Made by a program: the position numbers and the translations under genes. From a virus (taxonomy: Duplodnaviria; Caudoviricetes), in the IMG/VR virus record IMGVR_UViG_3300025707_000003, positions 32,001-96,000 of that record: a stretch of 64,000 nt of DNA; one strand, written 5' to 3'. Positions 10,764 to 63,469 of the stretch are shown here, in pieces (positions within the stretch are counted from its first letter, which is position 1; each line of letters opens with the position of its first letter). Below the pieces are notes generated by a model. The model saw only the letters and a list, made by a program, of their open reading frames with translations, was not told where the DNA came from and ran no database searches.

Positions 10764-11636
10764 TTAAATCTCTTCAATGACATAGTTAAGTTTAGTTCTA
10801 AGTCGCTTACCACTAGATGCGAGATATTGAAACGACTCCTCAGAAGCACCAAGTTGACGAATAATACTTTTTCGCTCATCTTCATCTAGGTATCCGAACG
10901 CTTCAAGAACTTGCTTCTCACTCCACCCTCTCTCCTCATAAAGATACTCATAAGGGTACTGTTTAAGAGCTTTCTCGATCTCTTCTTCTGCTTCTCCCAT
11001 AAGATCATTGCGGGCAGACTCTGGTAACTCGTTCAACATATTATTATAGTCAAATACCATTACTTCTGCACGATCAGAATAAAGACGATTGATCTCTCCA
11101 TTAACTTCTGGATCCATCCTCGCTTCCCAATAAGCCAGCTCCTCTTCATATGACTCTTTCTTTTCGGTCAAATCTGCCCTCTCAAGGATTTCGTCATCGT
11201 CTAAGTCTTCGATTTGTTCCTCCGCCCATTGAGTAGCCCACATTCCAATATCACCGTAAGGTAGACTCGCAGTGGTTACAATGATGTCTCTTGCCCAAGG
11301 CACTCTTACAACCACTTCTTTAACAGAATGGTTATCGAGCATCTCATCCATGATCTCTTCATTCATCTGTGTCTTAACATCATCATCCTCATAGATGATG
11401 TAATCACTCCAATCAGAAGAAACCAAGATCACATCTTTATGACCTTGAAAGTATTCCCAGACTTGACCGTTTCTTCTCTCTTTAAGATCAGACCTAGTTT
11501 GGGCTTTAGTTTCTCGACTTTCAACTAGAACTTCTAAAGCCCAAGTTATCCATTGAGGTTCTTTCTTAGATTGCTTTTCAAGTTGGGCAATCCTATTCTC
11601 AAGTTTATTAATGATTTCTGATGCTGATTTTCTCAT
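10764..11636 (-). CDS. Leader-family protein (MRKSASEIINKLENRIAQLE) with acidic cargo domain
   Basis: Shared N-terminal leader; aaatggagaaaaatcATG translation initiation region. Confidence 0.8.
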   Translation of the reverse strand: MRKSASEIINKLENRIAQLEKQSKKEPQWITWALEVLVESRETKAQTRSDLKERRNGQVWEYFQGHKDVILVSSDWSDYIIYEDDDVKTQMNEEIMDEMLDNHSVKEVVVRVPWARDIIVTTASLPYGDIGMWATQWAEEQIEDLDDDEILERADLTEKKESYEEELAYWEARMDPEVNGEINRLYSDRAEVMVFDYNNMLNELPESARNDLMGEAEEEIEKALKQYPYEYLYEERGWSEKQVLEAFGYLDEDERKSIIRQLGASEESFQYLASSGKRLRTKLNYVIEEI

Positions 11637-11663
11637 GATTTTTCTCCATTTGATTAAAATAAA

Positions 11664-12071
11664 TTAGTACGCACCCTTGATGCTTTTGATCTCTGATTTG
11701 ACTTCTTCATGTAGGTCATACCATCGATCAGAGATGGAAGCATAAAAGCGATCCTCTCTCATTGAAAATGAAGGCATACTCTCTAATGCTTGCTCCAGCT
11801 CTTGCATCGCTTCAAGAACTTTGACTGCACTCTCTCTTACAGATAATTGACGAGCAGTCTTGTTTCCCTTGTACTCAGGAGTTTTACGATACTCTTTAAC
11901 GAGTCTTTCGTATTCTTCATTTTGAGACTTGGTGAGATTATCATCGTCTTCAAGTTTTTGCAGGTCATCAAGTCTCGACCTGTCTTTTTTAGACATAGTG
12001 TGTGCTGATATTTCAAGTTGTGCGATTCTTGATTCAAGATCCCTGAGTACTTCACTTGCTGATTTTCTCAT
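11664..12071 (-). CDS. Leader-family protein (MRKSASEVLRDLESRIAQLE), 135 aa
   Basis: Start reassigned to ATG 12071 after aaatggagg; C-terminal ~60 aa resemble the C-terminus of 42383..43147. Confidence 0.8.
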   Translation of the reverse strand: MRKSASEVLRDLESRIAQLEISAHTMSKKDRSRLDDLQKLEDDDNLTKSQNEEYERLVKEYRKTPEYKGNKTARQLSVRESAVKVLEAMQELEQALESMPSFSMREDRFYASISDRWYDLHEEVKSEIKSIKGAY

Positions 12072-12148
12072 AAGAGTCCTCCATTTTTGGCTAGGGTTGC
12101 TGAGATTATATAAGTATAATAATAGATAAACTATCAAAGGATTAGCAT

Positions 12149-13123
12149 ATGATAAAGCTACTATGGAGAACAGATGTCCACATGGGAGATAAAACCCCAC
12201 GCAGACGCACTGGAAACTGGACGGATGATGTGGTCAACAAGCTCAAGTGGATTGGTGATCTCGCTAAGGATAAAGAGATTGACGCTGTACTTGATGGTGG
12301 AGACTTCTTTGATGTCAAATCACCCACCAAGAATAGCCATAGTTTAGTCCGTAAGGCTTGTGACGCACATGAGGGGTATCCTTGCCCTACTTATGGTCTA
12401 GTCGGCAACCACGATGTAAAATATGGCAATATAGACTACCTACCCGAACAACCTCTAGGAGTCCTATTCTCATCGGGTGTCTTTAAGCAGTTTGGCGATG
12501 ATGTAGAAATAAACTTTGAAAAAGATGGGGTCAAAGTTCGTGTAGTCGGTGTGCCTTATCATGGTGTCATTTATGACTTTGATCGGATCAAGAACATAAA
12601 AAAGAAAGACGAGGATTACCTACTAGTCGCTAGCCACCTCCTCGCTCGACAAGGTAAGACTGGATCAATGTTTGAGAATGAGGATATAGTTGGATATGAC
12701 TTCCTTAATGAGAACACAGAAGTAGACGCTTGGTTCTTTGGTCATTGGCACAAAGATCAAGGCATCTCCACGCTCTTAAATGGAGCAAGGGTTGTCAATG
12801 TAGGGTCATTAACAAGAGGTTCTTTACACCTTGATGACTTAGACCGTAGACCTTGTGTGGTAGAGGTTCAAGCCACCAAAGAGTCGCTTAACTTCATCAG
12901 ACACGATGTTCCTGTACGAGATGCCAATGAGGTATTCAAGATCGAGGAAACTGTGCGTGAAAAGGAAGATAAGCAACGAATGATCGACATTGTAGACAAG
13001 ATGAAAGCAGTAGCCACATCGGGTTGGTCTGAACTTACTCTTAAAGAGCGTGTAATGCAGACTATGGGTTCAAATGGAGCTAAGGAAATGGCTATCTCTT
13101 ATCTTGAACAAGTCGAGGATTAA
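12149..13123 (+). CDS. SbcD/Mre11-like metallophosphoesterase nuclease
   Basis: Calcineurin-like motifs DVH, GDFFD, GNHD, GHWH and VNVGSL. Confidence 0.8.
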   Translation: MIKLLWRTDVHMGDKTPRRRTGNWTDDVVNKLKWIGDLAKDKEIDAVLDGGDFFDVKSPTKNSHSLVRKACDAHEGYPCPTYGLVGNHDVKYGNIDYLPEQPLGVLFSSGVFKQFGDDVEINFEKDGVKVRVVGVPYHGVIYDFDRIKNIKKKDEDYLLVASHLLARQGKTGSMFENEDIVGYDFLNENTEVDAWFFGHWHKDQGISTLLNGARVVNVGSLTRGSLHLDDLDRRPCVVEVQATKESLNFIRHDVPVRDANEVFKIEETVREKEDKQRMIDIVDKMKAVATSGWSELTLKERVMQTMGSNGAKEMAISYLEQVED

Positions 13124-13124
13124 G
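13088..13124. repeat. 37 bp direct repeat copy 1 (3' end of SbcD-like gene)
   Basis: atggctatctcttatcttgaacaagtcgaggattaag; copy 2 at 13614-13650 has 2 mismatches. Confidence 0.95.
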
Positions 13125-13125
13125 A

Positions 13126-13512
13126 TTAAAGACTTTTAAGATAATCTAAAATGTCTTCATCTCTTCTTAATCCGTTTGGTTGGCCTTGGTCATGGTAGAT
13201 AATCTCGATTAAGTCGGTTGCGATAAGCACCTGGTCTTTTCTCGGTCTTTCCATAGACATACCAACTACATAACTATGATCAATGTCATCACTAGTTGAG
13301 AAGTGGTTAAAGATTTCGCCTTTTGACATGAAATAAGTTTTCATTCTGCGACCTCCACCATCTTGACCGTACTTATCTTTAAATGGTGCGAAGAGGGTAA
13401 ATTGCCCTTGCCCAAGAGCTTCCCTAGCTGGGTGCTTTCGGCCTGCTTGTCTTTCAAGTCTTGCAATCCTTGACTCAAGATTACGAATAACTTCGGTTGC
13501 TGATCTTCTCAT
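13126..13512 (-). CDS. Leader-family protein (MRRSATEVIRNLESRIARLERQA), 128 aa
   Basis: Start reassigned to ATG 13512; conserved UTR and class A motif at 13560-13572. Confidence 0.8.
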   Translation of the reverse strand: MRRSATEVIRNLESRIARLERQAGRKHPAREALGQGQFTLFAPFKDKYGQDGGGRRMKTYFMSKGEIFNHFSTSDDIDHSYVVGMSMERPRKDQVLIATDLIEIIYHDQGQPNGLRRDEDILDYLKSL

Positions 13513-13613
13513 GGTTTTCTCCATTTTGTTTGTGGTTAAAGAGATCACTTATGAGAACCTATAAAAGAACTATTAAAACAAGAAATAGATAAAAGTAGGA
13601 ATAAGGGGTGGGG

Positions 13614-13650: not shown

Positions 13651-13653
13651 TTA

Positions 13654-14121
13654 TTAGGCTTTTGTGATGTCATAGTCTGCACGAGCCTTTAGATTGCTCT
13701 TTAGGATGCTCTGTAGTTTATTAGCACAAGAGTTATAACTTTGGCTCTCACATCCAGTAGCAACAAATACTTGATAGAGACAACTCCAACAACCACCTTG
13801 AAGATTGTCTGATCCGTCATCAAGACCCCAACTGATTTGTAGTTGACCCCCCCCTATATCAACATATGCGTATAGGCTTGTTCCTCTCTCAATGTCTCCT
13901 TCCTCGATTCCTTCTTCAAGACTGGATTTAGCAGACTCAATATCACTGTTAACTTCTGCAATAATCTCTGCAAAAGTCATGTCGGTGTTTCGATCTCTTG
14001 GGTGACCTGTGTACCAACCTGTACTGATCTTTAGACCAGAATGTTTGTTGGCAGTACGACCTTCAAGACGAGCAATCCTCATCTGAAGGTTGCGAATAAT
14101 TTCTGATGCTGATCTTTTCAT
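13654..14121 (-). CDS. Leader-family protein (MKRSASEIIRNLQMRIARLEGRTA), 155 aa
   Basis: Start reassigned to ATG 14121; conserved UTR; class A motif 14169-14181 directly after the RecD2 stop. Confidence 0.8.
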   Translation of the reverse strand: MKRSASEIIRNLQMRIARLEGRTANKHSGLKISTGWYTGHPRDRNTDMTFAEIIAEVNSDIESAKSSLEEGIEEGDIERGTSLYAYVDIGGGQLQISWGLDDGSDNLQGGCWSCLYQVFVATGCESQSYNSCANKLQSILKSNLKARADYDITKA

Positions 14122-14181
14122 GGTTTTTCTCCATTTTGTTAAGGTTAATGAGATCACTTAAGATCAATTATAAATAAACTA

Positions 14182-31565: not shown

Positions 31566-31856
31566 TTACCTTCCGAACAAACACCTAGATTTTACCTCAT
31601 TGAGCATGGATTCAATCTTATTGAACTGATCTAAAAATTGTTGGTAAGGTAGAAGCACACTTTCACCACTAAGACCATCTAGCATTTCTGAAGCGTCCTC
31701 AAGTAGTTTTTGAACCTCACGATTTTCTCTAAGAAATTCATGACCCACAAAATTCTCTTTGATTGAATAGAGTCTACCTAGATTTTCATCTAGGTTTTCT
31801 TTTACCTTTTGAAACATCTTAGTCTTTGAGAGATGGCGATCAGCGTTTTTCACCAT
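31566..31856 (-). CDS. Hypothetical protein
   Basis: 96 aa ORF overlapping the upstream stop. Confidence 0.55.
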   Translation of the reverse strand: MVKNADRHLSKTKMFQKVKENLDENLGRLYSIKENFVGHEFLRENREVQKLLEDASEMLDGLSGESVLLPYQQFLDQFNKIESMLNEVKSRCLFGR

Positions 31857-33589
31857 CCTTTTTTTTTATTCCTTCTTAGTGAAGCTCTTCTACGACCACC
31901 AGTCATAGCACCATCAAGTTTACGCATAAGTTTCTGTAGACTCTTAATTGCATTGCGAGTACGAACCTCAATAGGTTGACGACCTGCACGACCAGTTCCT
32001 TGGATACGGTCAAGTACGAGTTTAATTTCTGAAGCACTCTCTTGTGAAAGCTGATCTCGGTTAGTGCTGAGTGAACGCTGTGTTGACATAAGTTGTGCAA
32101 CAGCCCTCTCATCAACGATACCGTCCTCGTTAAAAGATGTAATCGCCGCACGAATGACAGAGATAGTATCTGTGATCATACCCTGTGCGTAAGCGATGTC
32201 TTGGTTCTGCCAAGGTCCAGGTGTTGAAGTAAGACCGATAGGGTATTTACCATAGAGAGGTCCACTTTTACGATGTTCACCACGCTGTGAGAACGCAGAG
32301 ACATAACCCTTTTTGAGCTTAGACTTGAGTTGCTTTGCAAAAAACATCTCGGCATCATAAGAGTCCATAAATGATTTGTCAGAACTGCGACCAGTTGAAC
32401 CGAGGCGACCATAAAGAATTTCTACTGTTGAACCATTGATGACCATCTCGTAGAACTTGCTCTTGTTCTCAGACTCACCGATGAGATAAAGCATACAAGA
32501 GGTAGCGTCAGCGATTGAGCGACCATCGTGATAAGCAGTGCCTGAGCGAACTCCTTCAAGTTGTGGTTTACCTGCGGCTTCACGAGTCATGCGAGCTGTA
32601 CGGTTGAGGTTTCCTTCAAGACGAGCAATCCTCATCTCAAGATTTCTGATTACTTCACTAGCTGATTTACGCATAGTGTTTCCTTTCTTTAGAAGCCTTC
32701 TGACTTCATCTTTAGAATAAGAGTTGTTGAGCCTACGCTCATTTCTGTAGATGAGATGACGCAATCGCTTACGCTCCTCATCATTGAGTGAATCAATGCC
32801 TCTACGCTGACCTTTATTGATAAGCATAAAGTCATCTCGTGATAGATTAACATTGGATTTAAGATCTGCAAGTAACTTAGACTCTGGAGAGGACTGACTA
32901 GCAATGATCTCTTCAACTACATTCATTTGTCTTTCAGAGAGCTGAATACGATCTTCAGCTTTAGACTTGAGTTGAGCCAAGAAACGATTACGAGGGTCGA
33001 GTTCAAGTGCTTCTTCAATACGAACGAGCTGATTGTTAGGCTGATTTCCAACCATCTGTACAGCATCAAGCTTTTCGTCTATAACTTCAAGTTGTCTCTC
33101 GGAAAGCTCTCGCCCTCCCATAAGCTGGTCATAAAGGCTTCTGTAGAAACGATTTGTTGGTTGCATTGCGATTAACTCATTGAGTTTCATCAAGATTTCT
33201 TGGTCTGGGTCTTCAATACGCTCTTCAGTATCGATTAGGATCTCTTCTACTCGATACCCAAGAGGTTCTCCGTGTTCAAGATACTCAAGAATACCTTTCC
33301 ACCAATCGCTGTTTGGATTAAGTGCAAGTACTGCTTGCACACGATCAATACTCTCCATATCTCGAAATTTCCCTGGGAAGTCTACCTTTAACTGTATTAA
33401 ACCCTCCCGTATAGACATACCGTCAATGCTTCTCACAAGAGTCACAAGTACAGAGTCCCCTTTTTTATTCAACTTGACTTCAAACTCATCAAAGTTGATC
33501 AAGGCATTGTCTCTCCTAGACTCCATTTCAAGCATCTCTAGTGCTTCGCCTACTGTGGTATTGTAGAATATAATCTGGTTTTCTTTCAT
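31850..33589 (-). CDS. Multidomain protein with internal leader (ATG 32674) followed by a WGR domain
   Basis: Internal MRKSASEVIRNLEMRIARLE; WGR-like SKFYEMVINGSTVEILYGRLGSTG...KLKKGY; class A motif at 33621-33633. Confidence 0.75.
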   Translation of the reverse strand: MKENQIIFYNTTVGEALEMLEMESRRDNALINFDEFEVKLNKKGDSVLVTLVRSIDGMSIREGLIQLKVDFPGKFRDMESIDRVQAVLALNPNSDWWKGILEYLEHGEPLGYRVEEILIDTEERIEDPDQEILMKLNELIAMQPTNRFYRSLYDQLMGGRELSERQLEVIDEKLDAVQMVGNQPNNQLVRIEEALELDPRNRFLAQLKSKAEDRIQLSERQMNVVEEIIASQSSPESKLLADLKSNVNLSRDDFMLINKGQRRGIDSLNDEERKRLRHLIYRNERRLNNSYSKDEVRRLLKKGNTMRKSASEVIRNLEMRIARLEGNLNRTARMTREAAGKPQLEGVRSGTAYHDGRSIADATSCMLYLIGESENKSKFYEMVINGSTVEILYGRLGSTGRSSDKSFMDSYDAEMFFAKQLKSKLKKGYVSAFSQRGEHRKSGPLYGKYPIGLTSTPGPWQNQDIAYAQGMITDTISVIRAAITSFNEDGIVDERAVAQLMSTQRSLSTNRDQLSQESASEIKLVLDRIQGTGRAGRQPIEVRTRNAIKSLQKLMRKLDGAMTGGRRRASLRRNKKKGW

Positions 33590-34473: not shown

Positions 34474-34740
34474 ATGTCATTACCTAGAGAACGAAAAAGA
34501 GCAGATTATCGAGTGATCGCTCGTATCTTGCAACTGAGTCATGGACAGGGAAACCCAAAAGACTCTTTGCTTGAAAATACTTCTATTGTATTTACTCTAA
34601 AGGGGGGGTCATGGGTATTATTCTTTGAAGGACACCCAAAACACAGCAAACTACTTAAAATAGTGATAAAAGCTGTCGTAAAACATAAGAAGGATCAACA
34701 TGAGCGAAGAAATAGATGCAAAACCAGTCGGGAAGATTAA
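34474..34740 (+). CDS. Hypothetical protein
   Basis: Start reassigned to ATG 34474 after GGGAG; class A motif at 34434-34446. Confidence 0.55.
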   Translation: MSLPRERKRADYRVIARILQLSHGQGNPKDSLLENTSIVFTLKGGSWVLFFEGHPKHSKLLKIVIKAVVKHKKDQHERRNRCKTSRED

Positions 34741-36376
34741 ACCTCGATCTAAAGCAACCACTCGTAAGCTCAGTCCTGCTGAGATGAAATCGAGGGTGAA
34801 GATAGCGATGACTACAGGTGGCTCTATGATGGGGTCGGGTGGAAACTTCTATTCTCCAGAGCTATCGACAGACTTTCTTGAGCTACCTCAAAGTCAAGAC
34901 GAACAACGCAACTACTTTAGGTTCTTCTATCGCACTGACCCATTCGTTGGTCAGGCGATTGACCTACATACAGAGCTACCCCTCTCTAAGATCAGATTAG
35001 GATTACCTAAAGCTCGCAATAGAGATATGGCGTATGAAGCTCTAAGGTTTTGTGAAAAGTGGTCTAAGCGAGTAGGTCTTCTTCATCGGTTAATAGAAAT
35101 CTTACATGAGTTCAATCTACTTGGTGAGGCGTTTGTCTTTTGTGAAGACAATAACCCCGATGTGCCTCAAGAGATCACACATAGTGGTCGAAATGTCCTC
35201 AAAGAAGATGGCGAAGCGTTTACCGAGTGGACTGAGTATGAGGACGCAGATGAACGAGCTTTCAAATGGCTTAAAAGGAATTATAAAGGTTGGACTGGTC
35301 TTAGAATCCTTCCACCAGAGCAAGTTCACATGGAGAGTTTTCCTTTCACTAGTGAGAAGATCATCCAACTTATTCCCGATAGTAAAACTCGTGATGTAGT
35401 TGAACGAGCTTCGGTTAATGACCCCTCTGCTCTTCGTATCGTGGACTCTATGCCAGGTGATGTTGTTGAAGCTATCCGAGATGGTCGCAACATTGATCTC
35501 AACACCGATCCCGATCAAGGTTCATTCGTTTACTATATGGCTCGTAAGAAATCACAATATGAGCCTCGTGGACACTCTATGCTTGAGCGTTGTCTTCGTG
35601 TCCTCGTTTATCGAGATAAGTTAAGACAGGCACAAACCTCAATCGCTTCAAGACACATGACTCCTATCCGTCTTGTTTATGCAGAGGATATGGATGCGTC
35701 TGATGTCGAAGAGTTGAGAGATCAAGTGGATCTTGCATTACAAGACCCAGACTACTCGATCATCGCTAACTTTCAAGTATCTTGGGAAGAAATGGGTGCA
35801 GACTCTCGCTTATTAGAACTATCGGGTGAATATGACATGACCGACCGACAAATGTATGCTGGTCTAGGTGTTACTGAATCTCTGTTGTCGGGTGAGTCTA
35901 GTTATAGTGGCGACAGGATCAACCTAGAAGTCATCAACACACGCTATATGCTTATGCGTGAGGTTCTTCAAGAGATGGTTGAGGAGAACATCTTGAAGCC
36001 AATGTGTAGACGAATGGGTTTCGTTGAAGAAGATGAAGATGGGGATGAAATTGTCGTACACCCAACTCTTAGCTTCACTAGACTTGGATTGCGAGATAAC
36101 CAAGATACCTTTGATGCTCTCTTTAATCTGTATCAGAAGGGTTCATTGGACATTGATGTCATCTTAGAACTTCTTAATGTCGATCCTATGACCACTAAAG
36201 CTAAACTTGAGCGTGATATGTGGACACTCAACGATAGTCAGTTTAATGAGGTTCTTAGAGGGGTCTATGGTGAAGCTGGTCGTATGTTAGCCGAGAATAC
36301 CGAAGCGATTGAACTCATCGCTAAGAATCTTGGCTTAAAGTACAACCCACCAGAAGAAGAAGGTGGTCGTTTCTAA
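34700..36376 (+). CDS. Portal protein (putative)
   Basis: 558 aa, helical; FYRTDPFVGQAIDL N-terminal motif and size are consistent with large-phage portals; downstream of a class A motif. Confidence 0.65.
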   Translation: MSEEIDAKPVGKIKPRSKATTRKLSPAEMKSRVKIAMTTGGSMMGSGGNFYSPELSTDFLELPQSQDEQRNYFRFFYRTDPFVGQAIDLHTELPLSKIRLGLPKARNRDMAYEALRFCEKWSKRVGLLHRLIEILHEFNLLGEAFVFCEDNNPDVPQEITHSGRNVLKEDGEAFTEWTEYEDADERAFKWLKRNYKGWTGLRILPPEQVHMESFPFTSEKIIQLIPDSKTRDVVERASVNDPSALRIVDSMPGDVVEAIRDGRNIDLNTDPDQGSFVYYMARKKSQYEPRGHSMLERCLRVLVYRDKLRQAQTSIASRHMTPIRLVYAEDMDASDVEELRDQVDLALQDPDYSIIANFQVSWEEMGADSRLLELSGEYDMTDRQMYAGLGVTESLLSGESSYSGDRINLEVINTRYMLMREVLQEMVEENILKPMCRRMGFVEEDEDGDEIVVHPTLSFTRLGLRDNQDTFDALFNLYQKGSLDIDVILELLNVDPMTTKAKLERDMWTLNDSQFNEVLRGVYGEAGRMLAENTEAIELIAKNLGLKYNPPEEEGGRF

Positions 36377-36389
36377 TAGTTTATTTATG
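36377..36389 (+). promoter_or_regulatory. Class A motif immediately after the portal stop, heading a leader cassette
   Basis: TAA|tagtttatttatg followed by gtgatcttaagtgatctctttaacc. Confidence 0.6.
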
Positions 36390-36439
36390 AGTGATCTTAA
36401 GTGATCTCTTTAACCACAAACTTGAATGGAGAAACCATT

Positions 36440-36769
36440 ATGAGAAGATCTGCAACCGAAGTTATTAATGACCTTGAGATGAGAATCGCAAGGCTTGAAA
36501 AAGAAGCAAAAGAAGCAAATGATCTTCTTTTTTCGATAAATGAGGATGAGTGGGCAATGCTTGCAGAACTGCACGAAAATTTATCGAGCCGCGGCCCTTT
36601 ACAAGATCTAAAGTCAGGTTTGCCAAGTCATGTTCAGAAAGATTTTTCTAAAGTCTTACAACGAGGTAAGAACGATTATGTTACAAAGGAACTTTTAAAT
36701 TACTCAAAGGCGGTACGAGCCGAGCAATCTAAGTTAAAAGATTCACTCGGCAATATTCTGGGTATCTAA
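36440..36769 (+). CDS. Leader-family protein (MRRSATEVINDLEMRIARLEKEA), 109 aa
   Basis: Start reassigned to ATG 36440; conserved UTR. Confidence 0.8.
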   Translation: MRRSATEVINDLEMRIARLEKEAKEANDLLFSINEDEWAMLAELHENLSSRGPLQDLKSGLPSHVQKDFSKVLQRGKNDYVTKELLNYSKAVRAEQSKLKDSLGNILGI

Positions 36770-42382: not shown

Positions 42383-43147
42383 ATGAGAGCAGTACACATC
42401 TACGATTTTGACGGGACTTTATTTAGAACTCCACAAAGACCAAACTGGTATGACAATAACTTGGATGGGGTTTGGCATCAAAACCCATTGAGTTTTGCAG
42501 AACCTTGTCTACCTAAAGGTGAGCGTTGGGTTAAGTCTATTGTTTCAGAAGCTAAGAGAAGCATCGCCTCAAAGGATGTTTACACCATCGTCCTTACAGG
42601 GCGTAAGACACCTTTTCAAAGAGTAGTTGAGGATCTTTTAAGATCAAAAGGATTAAAGTTTGATGAGGTCATCTTGAAAGACAGAGGAGATACTGAGTCT
42701 TTTAAAAACAGAGTAATAGATCGCCTTATGGCACTGTTTCCTGATGCAGAGATCCACATCTGGGAAGATAGACATAATCATTTAAAAGTATTCATGGATC
42801 ACATCGAGATGAGAGGTGGCGTTGGAATCCCTCACGCAGTACCGCAAAACTACTCGGTGGCTGAATGTTCTGAAGAGGAGTTTAGGGATATGAGAAGATC
42901 AGCATCAGAAACTATTAGAAATCTTGAGCATCGCATTGCTCGACTTGAGGGGTCTAGGACAGCTTCAAGCGATGTTCGTAGAGCTGGCAAGAAAGTTATT
43001 GAAGCAATAGACAAGCTACAGGAAGAGCTTGAGAAGATGCCTTCCTTCAACAGTGATGAGTCTTACTATGAGGATTTAAGAGAGCGTTTTGAGGCACTTC
43101 ACCTTAGCGTCCATAAAGAGGTTCAGTTCATCACAGGTGCTTACTAA
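42383..43147 (+). CDS. HAD (Swiss Army Knife-like) phosphatase fused to an internal leader (ATG 42890) and a small helical domain
   Basis: IYDFDGTLFRTP, LTGR, IWEDR; internal MRRSASETIRNLEHRIARLEGSRTAS; conserved cassette UTR at 42348-42385. Confidence 0.8.
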   Translation: MRAVHIYDFDGTLFRTPQRPNWYDNNLDGVWHQNPLSFAEPCLPKGERWVKSIVSEAKRSIASKDVYTIVLTGRKTPFQRVVEDLLRSKGLKFDEVILKDRGDTESFKNRVIDRLMALFPDAEIHIWEDRHNHLKVFMDHIEMRGGVGIPHAVPQNYSVAECSEEEFRDMRRSASETIRNLEHRIARLEGSRTASSDVRRAGKKVIEAIDKLQEELEKMPSFNSDESYYEDLRERFEALHLSVHKEVQFITGAY

Positions 43148-52261: not shown

Positions 52262-53707
52262 ATGGCATTTTTAAGATATGCTAGGGCTAATGTAGTACAG
52301 CCCTCTATTCATGGTCTACAATGGGATAAAGTTAGAATCGCTTCTGGTGATAAAACCATCAATGCCTCGCTCAAAAAGCAAGCTGAGGATATTCTAGGCG
52401 AACCTTTCACTCCCGATAGATTTCTACTTACACACTCCACAATCGTTTGTTCTGTCGATGCTTTCACGCCTCCTAATACAAAGACAGGCTCGATCACTGA
52501 GGGTGGGCAAACCATTAACCGTAAATATGCTGACTATCGTATAAGTTCAGATACAGATAAGTTCATCAATAACAACCTCGACTCATGGTCAAGGGAAGTG
52601 ATCAAGAAGTCTTATCCGACTTTCATTGGTGCTCATAACTTTGTTGAGCATATCCAAGTAGAAGAACTCTCAAAAGGTCGCATTATAGATGCAGTCCTTA
52701 GAGACATAGGTGAATCTCTATATGTAGACATCCTTGTCGCCACTGATCGTAAGCATGAAGACTTAGTAAAACAGATCGAGTCGGGTCAAATGAACGCAAT
52801 GTCTATGGGATGTAGCGTAGACTTTACCATTTGTACTAAATGTGGTCATGTAGCCGCTGATGAAACAGAGATGTGTTCTCATGTTAAATATGAGAAGGGC
52901 AATGTTTTCTATGATGAGCAAGGAAATCAGCATAGAGTAGCAGAGCTTTGTGGGCATGAAGATATTGGTGGCACAGCAGGTGTTACCTTCATTGAGGCTT
53001 CTTGGGTCGCAACTCCTGCATTTACAGGAGCTGTTGCTCGAAACACATTAGAGATACCCTCTGCTGATATGGCAAAATCTGCTTCGGATGTGGAACTAAA
53101 TGAAGTCCCCGAAAAGTGGATCGCCAAAGCCTCTAGCTTACAAAGTTCTCCTTGGTATGACCCTCATGGTCAACTAACTAAAAAGGCTGGCCCTTTTGAT
53201 ATGGATGAGGATGAAGAAGAAGGTGGAGGCGATGACGCTTCAACCCCTTCAGAGTCTTTGCTCAAACAATTAGAATCTGTGTATGAGACTGCTATTGTAG
53301 ATCGTTTTCGTAAAAAACTAGAGAACGAGATCAAAGCAGAAAAAGCTCAAGAAGTTATGAACCCCCCAATAGATAAATCTGTCGTTGAGCAAAATGATAC
53401 GATTATCAAAGAGGGAGTTTCTGCTTCTAAATATATGAGTCTCTTAGATGCTTCTGTTAAAACAGCTAAAACTGTTGAAGAAGCTGTCTTGAACATTACT
53501 TTGGTAAACAACCATTGTAAAGTTCATGTCCCGACCCATGTTTATAAGTTGGCTAGTGTTCTAGGTACAACAACACAATATAATAGTGTTGTTGATTATC
53601 TTGAGCAAGCCAACTACTTAAACGGTAAAAAATTATCGAAGCAAGACACTCTTCGTCTTGTAAGATTAGCTAAACTGTTATCCCTTAACACTTACGGGCA
53701 GAAATAA
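52262..53707 (+). CDS. Prohead (capsid maturation) protease-like protein with Cys-rich insertion
   Basis: Position before scaffold and MCP; HNFVEH, SMGCSV, FIEASWVATPAF resemble HK97/herpes-fold prohead protease motifs. Confidence 0.6.
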   Translation: MAFLRYARANVVQPSIHGLQWDKVRIASGDKTINASLKKQAEDILGEPFTPDRFLLTHSTIVCSVDAFTPPNTKTGSITEGGQTINRKYADYRISSDTDKFINNNLDSWSREVIKKSYPTFIGAHNFVEHIQVEELSKGRIIDAVLRDIGESLYVDILVATDRKHEDLVKQIESGQMNAMSMGCSVDFTICTKCGHVAADETEMCSHVKYEKGNVFYDEQGNQHRVAELCGHEDIGGTAGVTFIEASWVATPAFTGAVARNTLEIPSADMAKSASDVELNEVPEKWIAKASSLQSSPWYDPHGQLTKKAGPFDMDEDEEEGGGDDASTPSESLLKQLESVYETAIVDRFRKKLENEIKAEKAQEVMNPPIDKSVVEQNDTIIKEGVSASKYMSLLDASVKTAKTVEEAVLNITLVNNHCKVHVPTHVYKLASVLGTTTQYNSVVDYLEQANYLNGKKLSKQDTLRLVRLAKLLSLNTYGQK

Positions 53708-53743: not shown

Positions 53744-55321
53744 ATGTCTAGGTATTCTCGTTCTAAGAATATGTCACGCAGGGCAGAACTTGCTCGTAGA
53801 AGAAATCGCAGAGCAAACTCTGCCCTTCCAGGTTCTGATAACCTCGGTTGGGATCACTTCGGTCATCCTGCCTCCTCTGATCAACCCGATGTTGACGCTT
53901 ATGGACTCGATTCAGAGTTCGGTGAAGGAGTCCGTAAAGGACCCTATCGCTCAGGCCCAGCTCCTGCCTCTGTAGGTTGGACTCCTGAACACCCTGCTTC
54001 TTCTGATGAGACCGCTGAGGATTATGCTCTTACTGATGATCTTCGCCAAGAGAATCTTAAGAAAGCTATGGAGCGTAAAGCGGCAAAGTGTATTCAAATC
54101 GCTGAATCTCGTCTTGGTCGTAGAGCTTCTCAAGTTGAAGTTGAAGATCTTGCACTACGCATGATGGATCTCCCTAATCGTACTGTTAATGCTCGTGTTG
54201 CTCGTCTTGCAGACAATGCTGTACAAGTCGGTACTGACTATGATGATGGTCTTGACTTCACAGGTCCAGGTAATGCAAGTGATGAGATTGAAGCTGATGG
54301 TCACATGGGTCATGGTATGTTCGATGAATATGACATTGACGGTGATGAAATGATCGACATGAGCGAATGGGGTGGTTCAGACTCTGCATTCAACTCTATG
54401 GATACAAACGAAGACGGATTCCTTTCTCGTGATGAAGTCGCTATGGGTCTTGGTGAGTCATTCGCTGATGATATTGAAGCTGATGATGAACTCGCAAACA
54501 TCATGGCTGAACTTGAAGCTGATGACATGGGTATGAATTCAGCAGATCAACTAGCAGAAGAAATCGCTATGCTCAAAGCGGCAAACGCTCGTCTTGCTCG
54601 CAAGGTTCGTAAGCTCGCTGATAATGCTGTACAAGTTGGCACAGACAATCCAGTTGAAGACCCAGAACTACAGATCGACACTTCTCCAGAAAATGAGCCA
54701 TCTGAAGGTCAACCTACTCAGCGTCTTGCTAAGATTGAACGACTCGCAGAAGCTCTTTCTGCTTATATGTCTGATCGTCAAGCAGGAGATGACATGGCTT
54801 CTCTTCTTGCAGAGCTTGAGGCTGATGACTCTCGTGAAATGAACGATTCAAACTTTGGTTACACTGCCGAAGAAACTGTTGAAGCTCATGATATTGAAGC
54901 TCATGAACTTGAAGCTCATGAACTTGAAGCTGATGATATTGAAGCTGATGATATTGAAACTCATATGATGGGTGAAGATGTCATGGGGCTTGATATGAAC
55001 GCTGACGATCTGATGGCTATGGATCCTCGCCTCGCTTCAATCTTTACTGCATCTGATGAAGAAGATTCTGATGAAGAAGATTCTAGCGAAGAAGATTCTA
55101 GCGAAGAAGATTCTAGCGAAGAAGAAAAGACTGAAGAAGATTCTGAAGAAGAAAAGACTGAGGAAAAGGCTAAGAAGAAAGCTTCTTATCGCCCACGCAC
55201 CTCAGCTCGTAAATCGGCAGTTAAGACTCTTGGGAACATTTCTCGTGAGGCTTCAAGAGGTTCAGACGAACTTTCTAAACTTTGGGAATCTGCTCCCGAT
55301 GTAAGCAAGTTCTTCGGATAA
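53744..55321 (+). CDS. Capsid scaffolding-like protein
   Basis: Very acidic, coiled-coil segments and internal repeats (R.ARLADNAVQVG, [IL]EA[DH]); lies between protease and capsid genes. Confidence 0.65.
   Translation: MSRYSRSKNMSRRAELARRRNRRANSALPGSDNLGWDHFGHPASSDQPDVDAYGLDSEFGEGVRKGPYRSGPAPASVGWTPEHPASSDETAEDYALTDDLRQENLKKAMERKAAKCIQIAESRLGRRASQVEVEDLALRMMDLPNRTVNARVARLADNAVQVGTDYDDGLDFTGPGNASDEIEADGHMGHGMFDEYDIDGDEMIDMSEWGGSDSAFNSMDTNEDGFLSRDEVAMGLGESFADDIEADDELANIMAELEADDMGMNSADQLAEEIAMLKAANARLARKVRKLADNAVQVGTDNPVEDPELQIDTSPENEPSEGQPTQRLAKIERLAEALSAYMSDRQAGDDMASLLAELEADDSREMNDSNFGYTAEETVEAHDIEAHELEAHELEADDIEADDIETHMMGEDVMGLDMNADDLMAMDPRLASIFTASDEEDSDEEDSSEEDSSEEDSSEEEKTEEDSEEEKTEEKAKKKASYRPRTSARKSAVKTLGNISREASRGSDELSKLWESAPDVSKFFG
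54881..54970. repeat. 15 bp tandem repeats encoding EA[HD][DE][IL]
   Basis: gaagctcatgatatt / gaagctcatgaactt / gaagctgatgatatt units, about 6 copies. Confidence 0.85.
55058..55117. repeat. 15 bp tandem repeats encoding EEDS[DS]
   Basis: gaagaagattct(gat/agc) x4. Confidence 0.9.
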
Positions 55322-56073: not shown

Positions 56074-56952
56074 ATGAGTAATACAGTTGATAATGCCGTA
56101 AAACAGAAGATCATTTCTGACTACATTAAGACTCCTCAAGGTCGTGCGAAGCTCGCCGCTTCAATGACTCAACCTTTACGCCTTCGTAGAGATTACACCT
56201 CTGTTGGTCGCAAGACTTTCTTAGTCGAGCAACTTCCAGACGGTGCTTTACCTATCTACGACAAAGACCCAGATGTTACTGCATTTGTGGTTGGTGAAGA
56301 GGGTGAAAACATTCTTGCAATCACCAAACCTCGTAGGGTTATCTTCCCTCTTTTCGAGATTGCTTCAAATCCTGAGATTCCTTTGACTCAAATCAAAGAG
56401 CGTAGATTTGACCTTATCGAGAGGGCACAAGATTTAGCTCGTGCTCAAATCCAAGCGGCTGAAGACGAGCGTGTATTCGCTATTCTTGACGCAGTTGCGG
56501 CAAACGGATTTGATTCAGTTGCAGGTCAAACTAACGCTGACCTTCCTGTTATCGCTCCTCTTAATGGTGCTGTTCTTGCTGACGCATTTAGCCTCATTGA
56601 GCGTCACGACCTTCGTGTTGCCCGTATCTTCATGAATGCTCGTGATTATGCTGACATCCGTAAGTTCGGTAGAGATATCCTCGACATCGAGAGCCAAGCG
56701 GCACTTCTCAAGACTGGTCTTCAGGCTACTCTTTGGGGTGCTCAGATCATCACTAGCCGTCTTGTTCCTGTTGGAACTGTTTATGTCTGCTGTGAGCCAG
56801 AAATGTTCGGTCGTATCCCTGTTCGTACAGAATTGACCGTTCTCTCTGCTGACGATCCAAAAGCTCGTACAATTGGTTTTTCAGTGTTCGAGAATTTGGG
56901 TATTGGTGCCTACAACCCTCGTGGTCTTGCTCGTCTTACAGTACAGCGTTAA
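56074..56952 (+). CDS. Major capsid protein (HK97-like fold)
   Basis: 292 aa; follows protease-scaffold-decoration; HK97-type pattern (E-loop VVGEEG, AEDERVF, GLQATLWGAQII); followed by a strong terminator. Confidence 0.8.
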   Translation: MSNTVDNAVKQKIISDYIKTPQGRAKLAASMTQPLRLRRDYTSVGRKTFLVEQLPDGALPIYDKDPDVTAFVVGEEGENILAITKPRRVIFPLFEIASNPEIPLTQIKERRFDLIERAQDLARAQIQAAEDERVFAILDAVAANGFDSVAGQTNADLPVIAPLNGAVLADAFSLIERHDLRVARIFMNARDYADIRKFGRDILDIESQAALLKTGLQATLWGAQIITSRLVPVGTVYVCCEPEMFGRIPVRTELTVLSADDPKARTIGFSVFENLGIGAYNPRGLARLTVQR

Positions 56953-57621: not shown

Positions 57622-58529
57622 GAGCGATACCATGCCCTATATCTAAAGAGCGTTTTGAAGACCTCTATACTAAACAATACTTAACAGAGAAGCAGATTAA
57701 CGAGTTGTTGATTTCTGAGGGTATTGACTCAAGCATGAAGCGTATTGGTAGTTGGAGACTACGCTATGGGATTGAAACGGTATCTAAGTTTGATCGTCTT
57801 GAGCTACCAAAGATTGAGGGGGAGTTAAGATCAATCCTTATTGGTTCTATGCTAGGTGACGGTCGTATTGTTTTTCGTACTAACGCTTCACACTATGAGG
57901 AACGACACGCACCCAATCAGAAAGAGTATCTTGAGTGGAAGCAAGAGAAGTGGGGCGTGTGGTCATCTGGAGATTTAGCAGTAGCGATGAGTAGGGAGTT
58001 CCCTAGTTATATCTTTCGCACCCACGCTCACCCTATGCTAAATGAGTATCGAGACTTGTTCTATGAGGAGAGGGATAAGGGGTGGAAAGTTGTTAAGTCT
58101 GATGTTATAGACCAAGTAGATGAGTTAGCTTTGGCTATGTGGTATCTCGATGATGGTCATGCAGGACATTGGCCTATGATTTGTTTTGGGGCAAAACAGG
58201 GGAGTCGAGCTAACGCTTACTTAATCTTTGAGAAGTTTGGTTTAGCCCCTAACTGGACACATAAAAAAGGGGAGACAGGAGAGTTCCACTTTAAGGGTGA
58301 GAACGCTTATCGTTTCATTGAGATCATTAAGCCTCATGTACCCGATTGTATGTCTTACAAGTTGGACTTTGGTTTTCAAGGTCGTAACAATGCTATCAAG
58401 AAAAAGATGGACAAAGGCATCTTAGAGGACTTAAGGAGTAAGGGGTGGGGTAAGCGTAGGATAGCTAGGTATCTTGATGTAGGGGCGAGTACAGTGGGTC
58501 GTTGGATGGTTAAGTTTGGAGTGGAGTGA
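57618..58529 (+). CDS. Free-standing LAGLIDADG homing endonuclease with HTH extensions
   Basis: LIGSMLGDGRI and LAMWYLDDG motifs; terminal HTH-like segments. Confidence 0.8.
   Translation: MRAIPCPISKERFEDLYTKQYLTEKQINELLISEGIDSSMKRIGSWRLRYGIETVSKFDRLELPKIEGELRSILIGSMLGDGRIVFRTNASHYEERHAPNQKEYLEWKQEKWGVWSSGDLAVAMSREFPSYIFRTHAHPMLNEYRDLFYEERDKGWKVVKSDVIDQVDELALAMWYLDDGHAGHWPMICFGAKQGSRANAYLIFEKFGLAPNWTHKKGETGEFHFKGENAYRFIEIIKPHVPDCMSYKLDFGFQGRNNAIKKKMDKGILEDLRSKGWGKRRIARYLDVGASTVGRWMVKFGVE
58474..58529. repeat. 56 bp direct repeat copy 1 (3' end of LAGLIDADG gene)
   Basis: Copies at 58942-58997 (3 mismatches), 59583-59616 (34 bp, perfect) and 61341-61358 (16/18). Confidence 0.95.
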
Positions 58530-58600
58530 GGACTTTGATAGTTTATTTATAATAGATCTTAAGTGATCTCTTTAACCAAGAATCCAAATGGAGAAACATT

Positions 58601-58915
58601 ATGCGTAGATCAGCATCAGAAATCATCAATAACCTTGAGAATAGGGTTGCACGACTTGAATCAAGTTCTAACCCTCGTCAAGCTAAAGATGCTTATGATA
58701 TTTGGAGAAGGAAAGTAGATCAGTACATCATTAAGGAAATGCGGGTCACTTTTGAATACGAAACAAAAGACGGTGAACACTCCGAAGACTATATAAACAG
58801 TCTTTGGCAAGATGGAGTTAAGCCATCACGAGCCTCCAAAAATATCATGCAGAAATTTCAATGGTTAAAGTCAGCGGGTATGCTAAAGCATCATAAATAT
58901 TATGATGCTATTTGA
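58601..58915 (+). CDS. Leader-family protein (MRRSASEIINNLENRVARLE), 104 aa
   Basis: Class A motif at 58539-58551 and conserved UTR. Confidence 0.8.
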   Translation: MRRSASEIINNLENRVARLESSSNPRQAKDAYDIWRRKVDQYIIKEMRVTFEYETKDGEHSEDYINSLWQDGVKPSRASKNIMQKFQWLKSAGMLKHHKYYDAI

Positions 58916-58941: not shown

Positions 58942-58997
58942 TTGATGTAGGGGCGAGTACAGTGAGTCGTTGGATGGTTAAGTTTGGGGTGGATTGA
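58942..58997. repeat. Direct repeat copy 2 of the LAGLIDADG gene end
   Basis: ttgatgtaggggcgagtacagtgagtcgttggatggttaagtttggggtggattga. Confidence 0.95.
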
Positions 58998-59044: not shown

Positions 59045-59575
59045 ATGAGACTTACTATCGCTTTACTCTTATCTGTCTTGCTCACCTCTACGATTTCTCA
59101 CGCTGAAGAGAATAACTGGGAAGTGAGTCTAGGCACAACGCAAATGTTCATCGGTGGGTACGAAGAGGGTTCAATACCTGTACCTACGAACTCTGCCACA
59201 TTCATCTTATCTCGTAAGATGTATGAGAGCTTTGCATTATGGGTTGTGTTCAATCTACCTACCTCCTCTAACAAAAGGTTTACAGAGGAAGGTTTACTTG
59301 TAGAGTCTCAGACACCACCTAGTCTTATGCTAGGTGCGAGTTATGAGTTATTGGGCTATGAGATCTCCGACAAGAAATCTTTAGGTCTTGATGTTGGTGC
59401 TTCAGTCGGACACACGATTACGCTTAATGGTCAGTTCTTCCCTGTGGGTGCGTTTCGTTTGAAGTTCGTTAAAGACGAGGACAGCACTATGTATGCAGGG
59501 GTGACAACCTCACCATATAATCCAGATGGTGATTTGGTTTGGGGTTTGATCTATGGCATGGGGTATAGATTTTAA
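59045..59575 (+). CDS. Secreted protein, possibly an outer-membrane beta-barrel
   Basis: Sec signal peptide (…TISHA), alternating beta-strand pattern, C-terminal YGMGYRF with terminal Phe; class A motif at 59002-59014. Confidence 0.6.
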   Translation: MRLTIALLLSVLLTSTISHAEENNWEVSLGTTQMFIGGYEEGSIPVPTNSATFILSRKMYESFALWVVFNLPTSSNKRFTEEGLLVESQTPPSLMLGASYELLGYEISDKKSLGLDVGASVGHTITLNGQFFPVGAFRLKFVKDEDSTMYAGVTTSPYNPDGDLVWGLIYGMGYRF

Positions 59576-59582
59576 TGTGAGT

Positions 59583-59616
59583 GCGAGTACAGTGGGTCGT
59601 TGGATGGTTAAGTTTG
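59583..59616. repeat. Direct repeat copy 3 of the LAGLIDADG gene end
   Basis: gcgagtacagtgggtcgttggatggttaagtttg. Confidence 0.95.
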
Positions 59617-59684
59617 AGGTTTTGTAGTTTCTTTATAATAGATCTTAAGTGATCTCTTTAACCTTAATCAAATGGAGAACCATT

Positions 59685-60164
59685 ATGAGAAGATCTGCAT
59701 CAGAAATCATTAATAACCTTGAGACTCGTATCGCAAGACTTGAAAGACAAGCATATCACCCTGATGACCCACGATCACAAGAGATGGGTGGTTATAGAGA
59801 GCCTGCGGGGGGAGAGTGGCATGAGCCTGAGATTCTTACTGGAAAAAAGTTTCTCAGGTGGTTACAAAATGATCGGGAGATCAAATCCCATTTAAATAAG
59901 AGCGTGTTTATAGATGTTTCTTCATCTACTATCACCTTTGACACATCTTGGTGGTCAAAATATACAAGAAATGGTAATACCTTGGATGGGATTCTATACA
60001 GCATTTGGGACAATCCTATGTTGGGGCGGGATTGGAAGATAAGAGGGAGAAATGTGACTATCAAGGGTTTGTGGGGAGACCTTGTGTACGGGGAGGGTGA
60101 TATTTATGCACAAGAAACCTTTACCATCAAGAAGAGTCGTGGTTCTATCGTTTTAAAGGCATAG
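59685..60164 (+). CDS. Leader-family protein (MRRSASEIINNLETRIARLERQA), 159 aa
   Basis: Start reassigned to ATG 59685; class A motif at 59625-59637 and UTR. Confidence 0.8.
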   Translation: MRRSASEIINNLETRIARLERQAYHPDDPRSQEMGGYREPAGGEWHEPEILTGKKFLRWLQNDREIKSHLNKSVFIDVSSSTITFDTSWWSKYTRNGNTLDGILYSIWDNPMLGRDWKIRGRNVTIKGLWGDLVYGEGDIYAQETFTIKKSRGSIVLKA

Positions 60165-60349: not shown

Positions 60350-60715
60350 ATGAGAAACTTACTCACAATCGCACTTATTGCTCTTACCTTTATTGCTTGC
60401 GACAAGGATAAAGAAGAAACCACACCTAACGATGGTGGTATGGAAGCTGGGGCTACCGCAGGATCAGAGGCAGGATCTGAAGCAGGAACTGAAGCAGGGT
60501 CTGATGCAGGAACTGAAGCAGGGACAGAAATGGACATGATGGTTATGGGTGGTTCTGAAGAGACTACAGACATGGAAATTACTGAAGGTGGTACTGAGTC
60601 TGATATGGGTATGGACGAAGCGGGTATGGAATCTACGGACATGGAAGTAGTTGAGGGTGGTTCAGATGAATCTACGGATATGGGATCTGATACCGAAGCT
60701 GGAACTGAGGGCTAG
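60350..60715 (+). CDS. Low-complexity acidic lipoprotein
   Basis: Signal peptide with lipobox FIAC; GSEAGTEAG and DM repeats; class A motif at 60296-60308. Confidence 0.7.
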   Translation: MRNLLTIALIALTFIACDKDKEETTPNDGGMEAGATAGSEAGSEAGTEAGSDAGTEAGTEMDMMVMGGSEETTDMEITEGGTESDMGMDEAGMESTDMEVVEGGSDESTDMGSDTEAGTEG

Positions 60716-60856
60716 TAGTCTTGCTCGTCTAAATGGTCTTTAAGATCTTAGAATGAACCTCATTTCCCTTTGGGATTTGGGGTTTTTCCGTTTATAGTTT
60801 GTTTATAAGTGATCTTAAGTGATCTCATTAACCTTAAACAAAATGGAGAAACCATT

Positions 60857-61291
60857 ATGAGAAGATCAGCATCAGAAATTATTAGAGGACTTGAGAATAG
60901 GGTTGCACGACTTGAAAGACAATCCTCAACCAACCGTAGGGCTAGAAAGTACGGGAAAGCGATCACAGACGCTGTTCGGATGCTTAAGAAAGAGGTGGGC
61001 GATGCAGATGCGTCTGAGATTGAAGTGGTGGTGGTAGAGCTAGTCCATTATAAATTTGAGGATCTGCTTAGAGAGATCGAGGACAGAGGTCCTAATGCTG
61101 AAGAGTACTATGAAAATGAAGTTGTAAATAAGTACCCAGCACTGGTCAAAGCAGGTATTCTATCCGCTGAAATATGGATACAACATCCCAAAATAATCCG
61201 AGACCGATACAGGTTGAAAAACTTAAAGGAAGTTAATCTCTTCGCTGAGTGCATTGGGTCAAGAAAATTGGCTGAGGGGCTCAGTTTCTGA
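60857..61291 (+). CDS. Leader-family protein (MRRSASEIIRGLENRVARLERQS), 144 aa
   Basis: Start reassigned to ATG 60857; class A motif at 60795-60807 and UTR. Confidence 0.8.
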   Translation: MRRSASEIIRGLENRVARLERQSSTNRRARKYGKAITDAVRMLKKEVGDADASEIEVVVVELVHYKFEDLLREIEDRGPNAEEYYENEVVNKYPALVKAGILSAEIWIQHPKIIRDRYRLKNLKEVNLFAECIGSRKLAEGLSF

Positions 61292-62480: not shown

Positions 62481-62532
62481 GGTGTCTTGTCTCCCATTCC
62501 CTTTATATGAATGATACCGAGTTTAGGTTTTT

Positions 62533-62549
62533 GTAACCCCTTAAATATA
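62533..62549 (+). promoter_or_regulatory. Class B motif, putative early promoter
   Basis: gtaaccccttaaatata upstream of 62582. Confidence 0.5.
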
Positions 62550-62581
62550 CCCTTATGTAACTCTTGAAAGGAGACTAAGAC

Positions 62582-62806
62582 ATGACAGATCAAAAGGCAC
62601 AACAACTAAGGGATGCATACAATAAGTTCGTTGACCACCCCGATGGTCATTGGAAAGGTTCTGCCATTGCAGTGGTCAACCAAGCTCAGAGATCAATCGT
62701 TCGGGAAGCGATGGACTTTATGGGTTCAATCGTTGACCAAGAGTTAGAACTGAGTGATGGTAATATTGCTCTTTACAGTAAAGGATATTGGGCACATGGA
62801 TTTTGA
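62582..62806 (+). CDS. Hypothetical protein
   Basis: 74 aa; AAGGAG RBS. Confidence 0.65.
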   Translation: MTDQKAQQLRDAYNKFVDHPDGHWKGSAIAVVNQAQRSIVREAMDFMGSIVDQELELSDGNIALYSKGYWAHGF

Positions 62807-63026
62807 GGTATATAAACTAACCGATGCTGAACTTGGGGCAGTAGACTTTTGTAGAGGTCGCTACCTATGGGCTGACATCGTAGCTCAAAACTTAGAGGGT
62901 GATACGCTTACCCTAGATAACATGACTCAACATGAGATGAATGAGGCTATTGAGGTAGAGGGCATTCCTCTCTTAGATGATCGCACTGATCTTTTTCGAG
63001 GACTTATCTCTCTTGAGCCTGTGTGA
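62796..63026 (+). CDS. Hypothetical protein
   Basis: Start reassigned to ATG 62796, overlapping the upstream stop. Confidence 0.6.
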   Translation: MDFEVYKLTDAELGAVDFCRGRYLWADIVAQNLEGDTLTLDNMTQHEMNEAIEVEGIPLLDDRTDLFRGLISLEPV

Positions 63027-63094
63027 ACTTTAATAGTTTATTTATAGATTCTCATAGGAGTCTCTTTAACCTTAACTTGAATGGAGAAACCATC

Positions 63095-63469
63095 ATGAGA
63101 AGATCAGCTAGTGAAATCATCCGTAACCTTGAGGGTCGTATTGCTCGTCTTGAAAAATCGGCTCGTCCGAATGACATAGGTATACATAAAGTAGTCAACA
63201 AATTGGCATATATACATCAATTTTCTTCGGGGTCCATGGTTCTATCTGTGCCTAGTAGAAATGCTGACGAAGTGGTAAGGGCAATCAAGGAGATTGGTGT
63301 GGGAGCAGAGAATCCATTTGAGGAAAACGATATCACTTATAAGAAAGATAATAAAGGACACATGGTTACATTCACTGTTTCATCACCCGAATGGTTAAGA
63401 ACACATGATGTGGTTCTAAGCCTAAAACTAGATGGTTTTTTCCTAGTGTCTCACGATGACTTTAGATGA
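63095..63469 (+). CDS. Leader-family protein (MRRSASEIIRNLEGRIARLEKSA), 124 aa
   Basis: Start reassigned to ATG 63095; class A motif at 63034-63046. Confidence 0.8.
   Translation: MRRSASEIIRNLEGRIARLEKSARPNDIGIHKVVNKLAYIHQFSSGSMVLSVPSRNADEVVRAIKEIGVGAENPFEENDITYKKDNKGHMVTFTVSSPEWLRTHDVVLSLKLDGFFLVSHDDFR

Follow-up and report, generated by a model that had tools for sequence, protein, structure and literature searches.

The 64,000-nt stretch of DNA analysed here (the window) is part of an 83,364-bp IMG/VR virus record (G000; CheckV completeness 27%) of an uncultured marine huge phage, and it carries 11 copies of a 23-residue leader with the consensus MRRSASEIIRNLExRIARLE-[KR][QS][AS], most of them at the N-termini of otherwise unrelated proteins. 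This tag is real, abundant and undescribed. We tentatively read it as a portable propeptide that addresses proteins to the capsid in the manner of the capsid-targeting sequence (CTS) of phage T4, a reading which is plausible but to which we give somewhat less than an even chance; the broader claim, that of a tag for late addressing or docking which some shared partner encoded by the phage recognises, is far more probable.

Conservation and spread of the leader

Translation recovers all of the 11 copies claimed in a preliminary description of this DNA. Nine are N-terminal, starting at 11636, 12071, 13512 and 14121 on the minus strand and at 36440, 58601, 59685, 60857 and 63095 on the plus strand, and two are internal, at 32674 on the minus strand (open reading frame (ORF) 31850-33589) and at 42890 on the plus strand (ORF 42383-43147), both of which open at an in-frame Met. 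A twelfth copy is located elsewhere in the record, outside the window (G000, 78308, plus strand). The window and the record differ by a one-base mismatch at position 38748.

In a sequence logo of 252 distinct tagged proteins, residues 1-20 each carry about 4 bits, with the exception of 8, 10, 11, 14, 16 and 18; the next three residues (21-23) keep a looser [KR][QS][AS] consensus, which bears out the [RK]x[AS] reported earlier to follow the leader, and the information falls away abruptly at residues 24-25. Information of this order across most of residues 1-20 rules out a chance origin of the motif. The hydrophobic residues form a perfect heptad, with A5, L12 and L19 at position d and I9, I16 and A23 at position a. 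The residues off this face and the N-terminal MRRSAS are likewise invariant, so that recognition on all sides of the peptide is more likely than a plain zipper, and the near-total invariance points to a specific receptor and/or enzyme as the reader of the leader. In the AlphaFold model of the 63095 protein a helix spans residues 5-22 and is followed by a low-confidence linker (residues 20-34) and a small alpha/beta domain.

The leader codons have diverged with a proportion of synonymous differences (pS) of 0.50 and of non-synonymous differences (pN) of 0.18 (pN/pS 0.35), and they include switches between codon families, namely TCA/AGT at Ser6 and AGR/CGN at Arg15 and Arg18. Judging by these codons, selection acts on the leader as a peptide, and conservation purely at the DNA level is ruled out by the same data. 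A Tat or Sec signal peptide was also considered and rejected: the RR pair is present but no hydrophobic stretch follows it, and a membrane-like segment occurs in only 3 of 246 tagged proteins.

The leader is widespread among relatives of this phage, the DNA of which is present in seawater metagenomes of at least 13 studies and in no RNA run. When IMG/VR was searched with an alignment of the leader, 55 loci were obtained, of which several are on contigs of 107-376 kb; together with the window they contain 102 distinct tagged ORFs by a 24-position hidden Markov model of the leader. Against 1.84 billion representative metagenomic proteins, the leader profile matched 1014 clusters (50% identity; E <= 0.001), with the tag at residue 1 in nearly all of them. 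A complete relative of 375,691 bp has 31 leader matches; the leader starts 27 of its 667 ORFs preceded by a ribosome-binding site (RBS), and no other N-terminal family in this genome has more than two members. The leader is absent from the 50,697 deposited phage records searched, its motif was not found in the relevant literature, and in profile searches no Pfam, PHROG or NCBIfam family covers residues 1-23. The preliminary description knew of no described system with this leader, and these searches agree with it, both for families, papers and phage records and for the curated domain profiles in which a different role might have come to light.

Cargo proteins

We refer to the sequence that follows the leader as the cargo. 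Ninety-seven usable cargoes from the window and its relatives fall into 69 BLASTP clusters, and within the window the only pair with similarity are the paralogues at 12071 and 42890, so that the view of the downstream sequences as mostly unrelated holds with this one exception. The idea of a portable leader on diverse proteins likewise fares well, the peptide being under selection and its many unrelated cargoes soluble: of 246 tagged proteins, 243 are free of membrane-like segments. The cargoes are 75-400 aa long and almost all of them are ORFans, with a Pfam match in 5 of 149 (two of the five being WGR domains) and PHROG assignments mostly to unknown families. The folds that were tried are uninformative on function; the model of the 63095 cargo has a generic alpha/beta fold with no significant structural match in the PDB or among viral structures, and two look-ups in the ESM Atlas yielded nothing of use.

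A dedicated promoter and leader cassette

The statement that nearly all copies sit behind the promoter-like motif of the structural genes stands for seven N-terminal copies, which have a full cassette composed of TAATAGTTTATTTATA, N5-8, AAGTGATCTCTTTAACCTTAAC, AATGGAGAA and ATG, and for the copy at 12071, where the cassette is a variant; it does not stand for 11636, where only a degenerate form is found, nor for the two internal copies, which have none. The first cassette element alone is also found upstream of the 1582-aa tail-fibre gene (7176, minus strand), of the portal operon (34434, plus strand) and of the head module (48553 and 55340, plus strand), and we take it for a late promoter. 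Because this promoter core is shared with the tail-fibre, portal and head operons, the tagged genes are presumably expressed late. The element of the 5' untranslated region (5'UTR), in turn, is restricted to tagged genes and is conserved in most of the 96 cassettes of the relatives, 80 of which have the promoter core. With a tag-specific 5'UTR, the tagged genes look like a co-regulated set of their own. Two genes in the same array that encode signal-peptide- or lipoprotein-like products (59045-59575 and 60350-60715) have the promoter core and neither the 5'UTR element nor the leader. The product of the former late gene has a signal peptide, is beta-rich and resembles outer-membrane proteins; that of the latter, also a late gene, is a lipoprotein-like, very acidic repeat protein, encoded in part by 12-nt tandem repeats (60443-60526).

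Two further features of the cassettes were observed. The tag-specific 5'UTR starts with a hairpin-like element, in which a variable left arm pairs with a constant GUGAUC (e.g. AGAUC-UUAAGU-GAUCU); the left arm differs among cassettes (e.g. 14122-14181, 36377-36439 and 58539-58600) with the pairing partly kept, and the element could serve mRNA stability or the binding of a regulator. The last 56 nt (58474-58529) of a LAGLIDADG homing-endonuclease gene (57618-58529) are repeated at 58942-58997 and 59572-59627, with 95% and 80% identity, and each copy stops a few bases before a late promoter cassette. A similar junction (...GGATTGA-TTTGTAG) is seen in relatives, which suggests that this gene end accompanies the cassettes when they are duplicated or moved.

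Head genes and clues to processing

Tagged genes flank the tail-fibre, portal and capsid genes. The portal protein (34700..36376, plus strand) matches phrog_16240 (E 1.8e-31). In the head module, a 213-aa protein (48608-49249) and a 1001-aa protein (49253-52258), for neither of which a family was found, precede a head-maturation protease of 481 aa (52262..53707, plus strand; phrog_18299, E 2.4e-14), whose cultured homologues are annotated as capsid maturation proteases in Tunturiibacter, Gordonia and Mycobacterium phages and for which no sequence match to solved structures, Pfam or NCBIfam was found. An acidic scaffold-like protein of 525 aa (53744..55321, plus strand) is encoded between the protease gene and that of the HK97-fold major capsid protein (56074..56952, plus strand; phrog_2522, E 1.4e-51; NF042927, E 4e-46). 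The resemblance that had been claimed between the leader core and the scaffold stands in so far as RVARLA and RLARK are present in this protein; it is, however, a 5-residue match found in close relatives only. In three contigs with proteases that are 49-62% identical, the scaffolds contain no RVARL, so that the resemblance appears confined to the leader-bearing subclade, a suggestive pattern drawn from few genomes.

Some proteins contain two or three cargo modules, and at their junctions stands either the full leader minus its Met or only positions 15-23, R[IV]ARLE[KR][QS][AS]. Eleven such half-motifs occur in about 40,000 residues of tagged proteins, as against 7 in 342,000 residues of untagged frames (about 13-fold), and an identical junction is followed by different downstream cargoes in different phages. 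The half-motif junction fits a processing site that separates the modules. A second motif, [RK]xA[ST], occurs without variation as RSAS at residues 3-6 of the leader, and no form is commoner at residues 21-24. It recurs as K[ST]AS, conserved across the protease family, in the linker after the protease domain, and in five phages with 49-92% identical proteases the scaffold has it at 3-4 positions that align, one of these lying about 22 residues before the conserved C-terminal tail. Its count in the four head-module proteins that bear it (the 213-aa and 1001-aa proteins, the protease and the scaffold) is 12 observed against 2.6 expected, while eight replication and other enzymes give 5 observed against 4.2 expected. 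By analogy with known proteases, candidate cuts in the leader may fall at E20|K21 (Glu at P1, as in T4 and SPN3US), at A23|S24 within [RK]xA|S (Ala|Ser, as for assemblins) or at A-S-E7|I (AXE, as in SPN3US).

Several observations concern the structural proteins themselves. Residues 213-236 of the scaffold-like protein form an EF-hand calcium-binding loop (Pfam EF-hand_6, E 2e-6) that the 375-kb relative conserves, a hint that head assembly may include a step dependent on calcium. Inside the gene of the 1001-aa protein, positions 51691-51740 combine a promoter core with an RBS and, at about 51737, an ATG in frame, and a separate product of about 173 aa with the C-terminal zinc-ribbon domain could be made from there; this domain is encoded by a standalone gene in a distant relative (L060, 9496-9999). 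The 1582-aa tail-fibre-like protein (2373-7121) has an N-terminal Mtd_N domain (major tropism determinant N-terminal domain; E 1.5e-12).

Tagged genes of the window

Four tagged genes lie on the minus strand in the first quarter of the window. The 290-aa product of 10764..11636 has its leader at 11568-11636 (23 codons) and a cargo with an orthologue in G001; this gene is located immediately upstream of a 1161-aa tail-fibre gene, with which it is probably co-transcribed. It is preceded by 11664..12071 (135 aa), with the variant cassette at 12072-12133 and a cargo paralogous to that at 42890, and by 13126..13512 (128 aa) and 13654..14121 (155 aa), with full cassettes at 13513-13572 and 14122-14181, respectively. 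On the plus strand, 36440..36769 (109 aa; cassette 36377-36439) follows directly 3' of the portal gene. Four more plus-strand genes are found downstream of the capsid gene: 58601..58915 (104 aa; cassette 58539-58600), 59685..60164 (159 aa; cassette 59625-59684), 60857..61291 (144 aa; cassette 60795-60856) and 63095..63469 (124 aa; cassette 63034-63094).

The two genes with an internal leader are composite. The 579-aa product of 31850..33589 (minus strand), which has its own late promoter core at 33633 (minus strand), consists of a 305-aa N-domain, the leader (32606-32674) and a WGR-domain cargo (WGR, E 7e-13). The N-domain and leader are kept in relatives (P0096 and L035), where the cargo is swapped. 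The N-domain (residues 1-305) contains internal repeats of the form ..NRF..L..Q...GR.LS.RQ..V.E... The 254-aa product of 42383..43147 (plus strand) joins a HAD_SAK_1 phosphatase (E 1.3e-20) through the leader (42890-42958) to a 62-aa cargo, which recurs in P0013 joined to a different protein.

Proposed role of the leader

We propose that, late in infection, the dedicated cassette (late promoter core, conserved 5'UTR, RBS and leader) would express about 30 small soluble proteins per genome. Their leader, whose residues 5-22 are predicted to form a basic amphipathic helix that is flexibly linked to the cargo, would bring them into the prohead during its assembly, with the acidic scaffold core as the probable docking site. 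Trimming of the leader would follow, presumably by the head-maturation protease (52262..53707), and the cargo would stay in the head, from which it could enter the host with the DNA. Head docking, its partner, cleavage, injection and the roles of the cargoes all belong to what we infer. A more far-reaching version holds that, across a widespread clade of marine huge phages, the mobile cassette leader loads more than 1000 ORFan families into capsids, about 30 per virion type and some of them as multi-cargo polyproteins, that an assemblin-like protease excises the leader at [RK]xA|S or LE|, and that the proteins are delivered to the host with the DNA; this version is possible but rather doubtful.

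Several observations weigh against a capsid address. The leader has no similarity to the T4 sequence MKTYQEFIAE and lacks the gp21 motif L/I-x-E. The isoelectric points (pI) of the cargoes are mixed (median 5.9), whereas T4 internal proteins are basic. In the three contigs with 49-62% identical proteases, the head-gene order is the same and no leader is found within 10 kb of the head genes. A model of the protease (30-sequence alignment, pLDDT 56) has T4 gp21 (5jbl) as its top fold match, but over 113 residues the match is not significant (E 0.14, Z 3.9). The motif [RK]xA[ST] was defined after the sequences had been seen, so that its distribution poses a hypothesis and is no test of one, and the half-motifs could be scars of recombination within the leader DNA. 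We also list here the complex prediction of the leader (63095 residues 1-45) with scaffold residues 95-345, from which no answer was obtained: with a score of 0.00 and both chains poorly folded, it speaks neither for nor against binding.

Alternative explanations

The leader might act as a docking or oligomerisation zipper that has nothing to do with the capsid, forming a short parallel coiled coil that joins the tagged proteins to one another or to a non-capsid hub such as an intracellular infection assembly. The perfect heptad described above would suit such a role, as would the pair R15-E20, which fits a g-e' salt bridge, the free helix on a linker in the 63095 model, and RIARLE, which also starts the Jun leucine zipper. 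A zipper of only about 2.5 heptads would nevertheless not account for the invariance off its face, including the non-helical MRRSAS, and it leaves both the conserved [KR][QS][AS] boundary and the junction half-motifs unexplained; no candidate hub was found, and we regard this explanation as unlikely. The location of four tagged genes directly upstream of the 1161-aa tail-fibre gene, probably in one transcript with it, and expression from a late promoter would suggest an anchor that displays proteins on the tail or the surface of the virion, one by which exchangeable small domains are held on a tail-fibre, baseplate or capsid-surface adaptor like the N-terminal anchors of multi-tailspike systems. 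Such an anchor is very unlikely: the cargoes are small and devoid of fibre or beta-helix features, the recognisable cargo-linked domains (WGR and the RNA-repair HAD phosphatase) are intracellular in type, about 30 cargoes per genome is far above the known branched receptor-binding systems, and portal and capsid genes are flanked by tagged genes as well.

Invariance at all positions would fit a peptide recognised by an enzyme or a quality-control system, be it a leader in the style of ribosomally synthesised and post-translationally modified peptides (RiPPs), a basophilic kinase site (RRSAS, with its RRxS-like motif), a chaperone tag or a timing degron, and a conserved leader before a hypervariable remainder is known from multi-precursor RiPP families. 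The cargoes, however, are folded proteins of 75-400 aa and not short core peptides, no gene for a modifying enzyme or maturase is linked to the arrays in the window, and the tagged genes associate with structural operons, which leaves this explanation with only a slim chance of being right. Finally, the leader may have no function as a peptide and be a by-product of a mobile promoter-RBS cassette, spread by recombination and the homing endonuclease with the first codons carried along. It is true that the entire 60-nt upstream cassette is conserved, that copies of the LAGLIDADG 3' end flank three cassettes and that cargoes are swapped at the leader junctions. Yet the peptide is kept despite synonymous divergence (pN/pS 0.35; TCA or AGT for Ser, AGR or CGN for Arg), is retained by the internal copies without a cassette and is invariant across 1014 clusters; the by-product explanation is already largely refuted by the codon data, and we give it almost no credence.

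Comparison with known systems

The concept of a shared capsid-addressing peptide is already known from the T4 CTS, and it is the present leader that is undescribed. The internal proteins of T4 are diverse and have as their only common feature the CTS, by which they are brought into the scaffolding core (PMC3012670). Like the CTS, which is found on IPI, IPII, IPIII and Alt and is removed by gp21, the leader is a short N-terminal peptide on unrelated, fast-evolving proteins; it ends in Glu at a conserved boundary and is movable between cargoes (PMC3012670). The gene order of protease, acidic scaffold(-like) protein and HK97-fold capsid protein is also that of T4 genes 21-22-23. The two differ in length (23 aa against about 10 aa) and in the pI of their cargoes, which is mixed here, and features peculiar to the leader are its dedicated 5'UTR cassette, its internal copies and the half-motifs of multi-cargo proteins. 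T4 has about 6-8 CTS-tagged genes, whereas there are about 30 tagged genes per genome here. The leader can be called CTS-like in function at best, and it is not a member of the T4 CTS family by sequence.

A second comparison is with the N-terminal propeptides that head and ejection proteins carry in phiKZ-like giant phages; in one of these, SPN3US, those of head proteins are cleaved (PMC10052503). In each case a huge phage may package many proteins inside its head that an essential prohead protease cuts at short motifs, and the invariant A-S-E of the leader (residues 5-7) fits the AXE motif of the SPN3US protease gp245 (PMC10052503). The SPN3US propeptides are, in contrast, not one shared near-invariant tag, and the protease of the window has no significant sequence match to the gp245 family. 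In herpesviruses, cleavage by assemblin between Ala and Ser frees the scaffold from the shell, and the M-site lies near the scaffold C-terminus. The [RK]xA[ST] motifs that bracket the leader and are also present in the linker of the protease and about 22 residues before the scaffold C-terminus are reminiscent of this arrangement, but the likeness is an analogy of motifs alone, and of a motif recognised post hoc. The leader also resembles the cargo-loading peptides of encapsulins in being short and in that it would direct cargo of many kinds into an HK97-fold shell; those peptides, usually at the C-terminus, attach directly to the shell protein and stay uncleaved, whereas the present system is that of a tailed phage with a scaffold and a protease.

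Implications

If the tag is a capsid address, the proteins that an abundant group of marine huge phages packages, and probably injects, could be listed with a single profile of 23 residues; they make up more than 1000 families that are now unannotated, and the tag would thereby provide a sequence rule for reading out the injected proteome of uncultured phages. The tagged proteins would then be candidate factors for host takeover or anti-defence, and the leader would offer a defined means of bringing foreign proteins into large capsids. The evolution of such a repertoire is on view in the promoter-UTR-leader cassettes, the cargo swaps at the leader and the multi-cargo fusions. Even if the capsid reading is wrong, a near-invariant peptide on 6% of candidate ORFs (27/667 in the 375-kb relative) marks a central and undescribed step of sorting or recognition in the biology of these phages.

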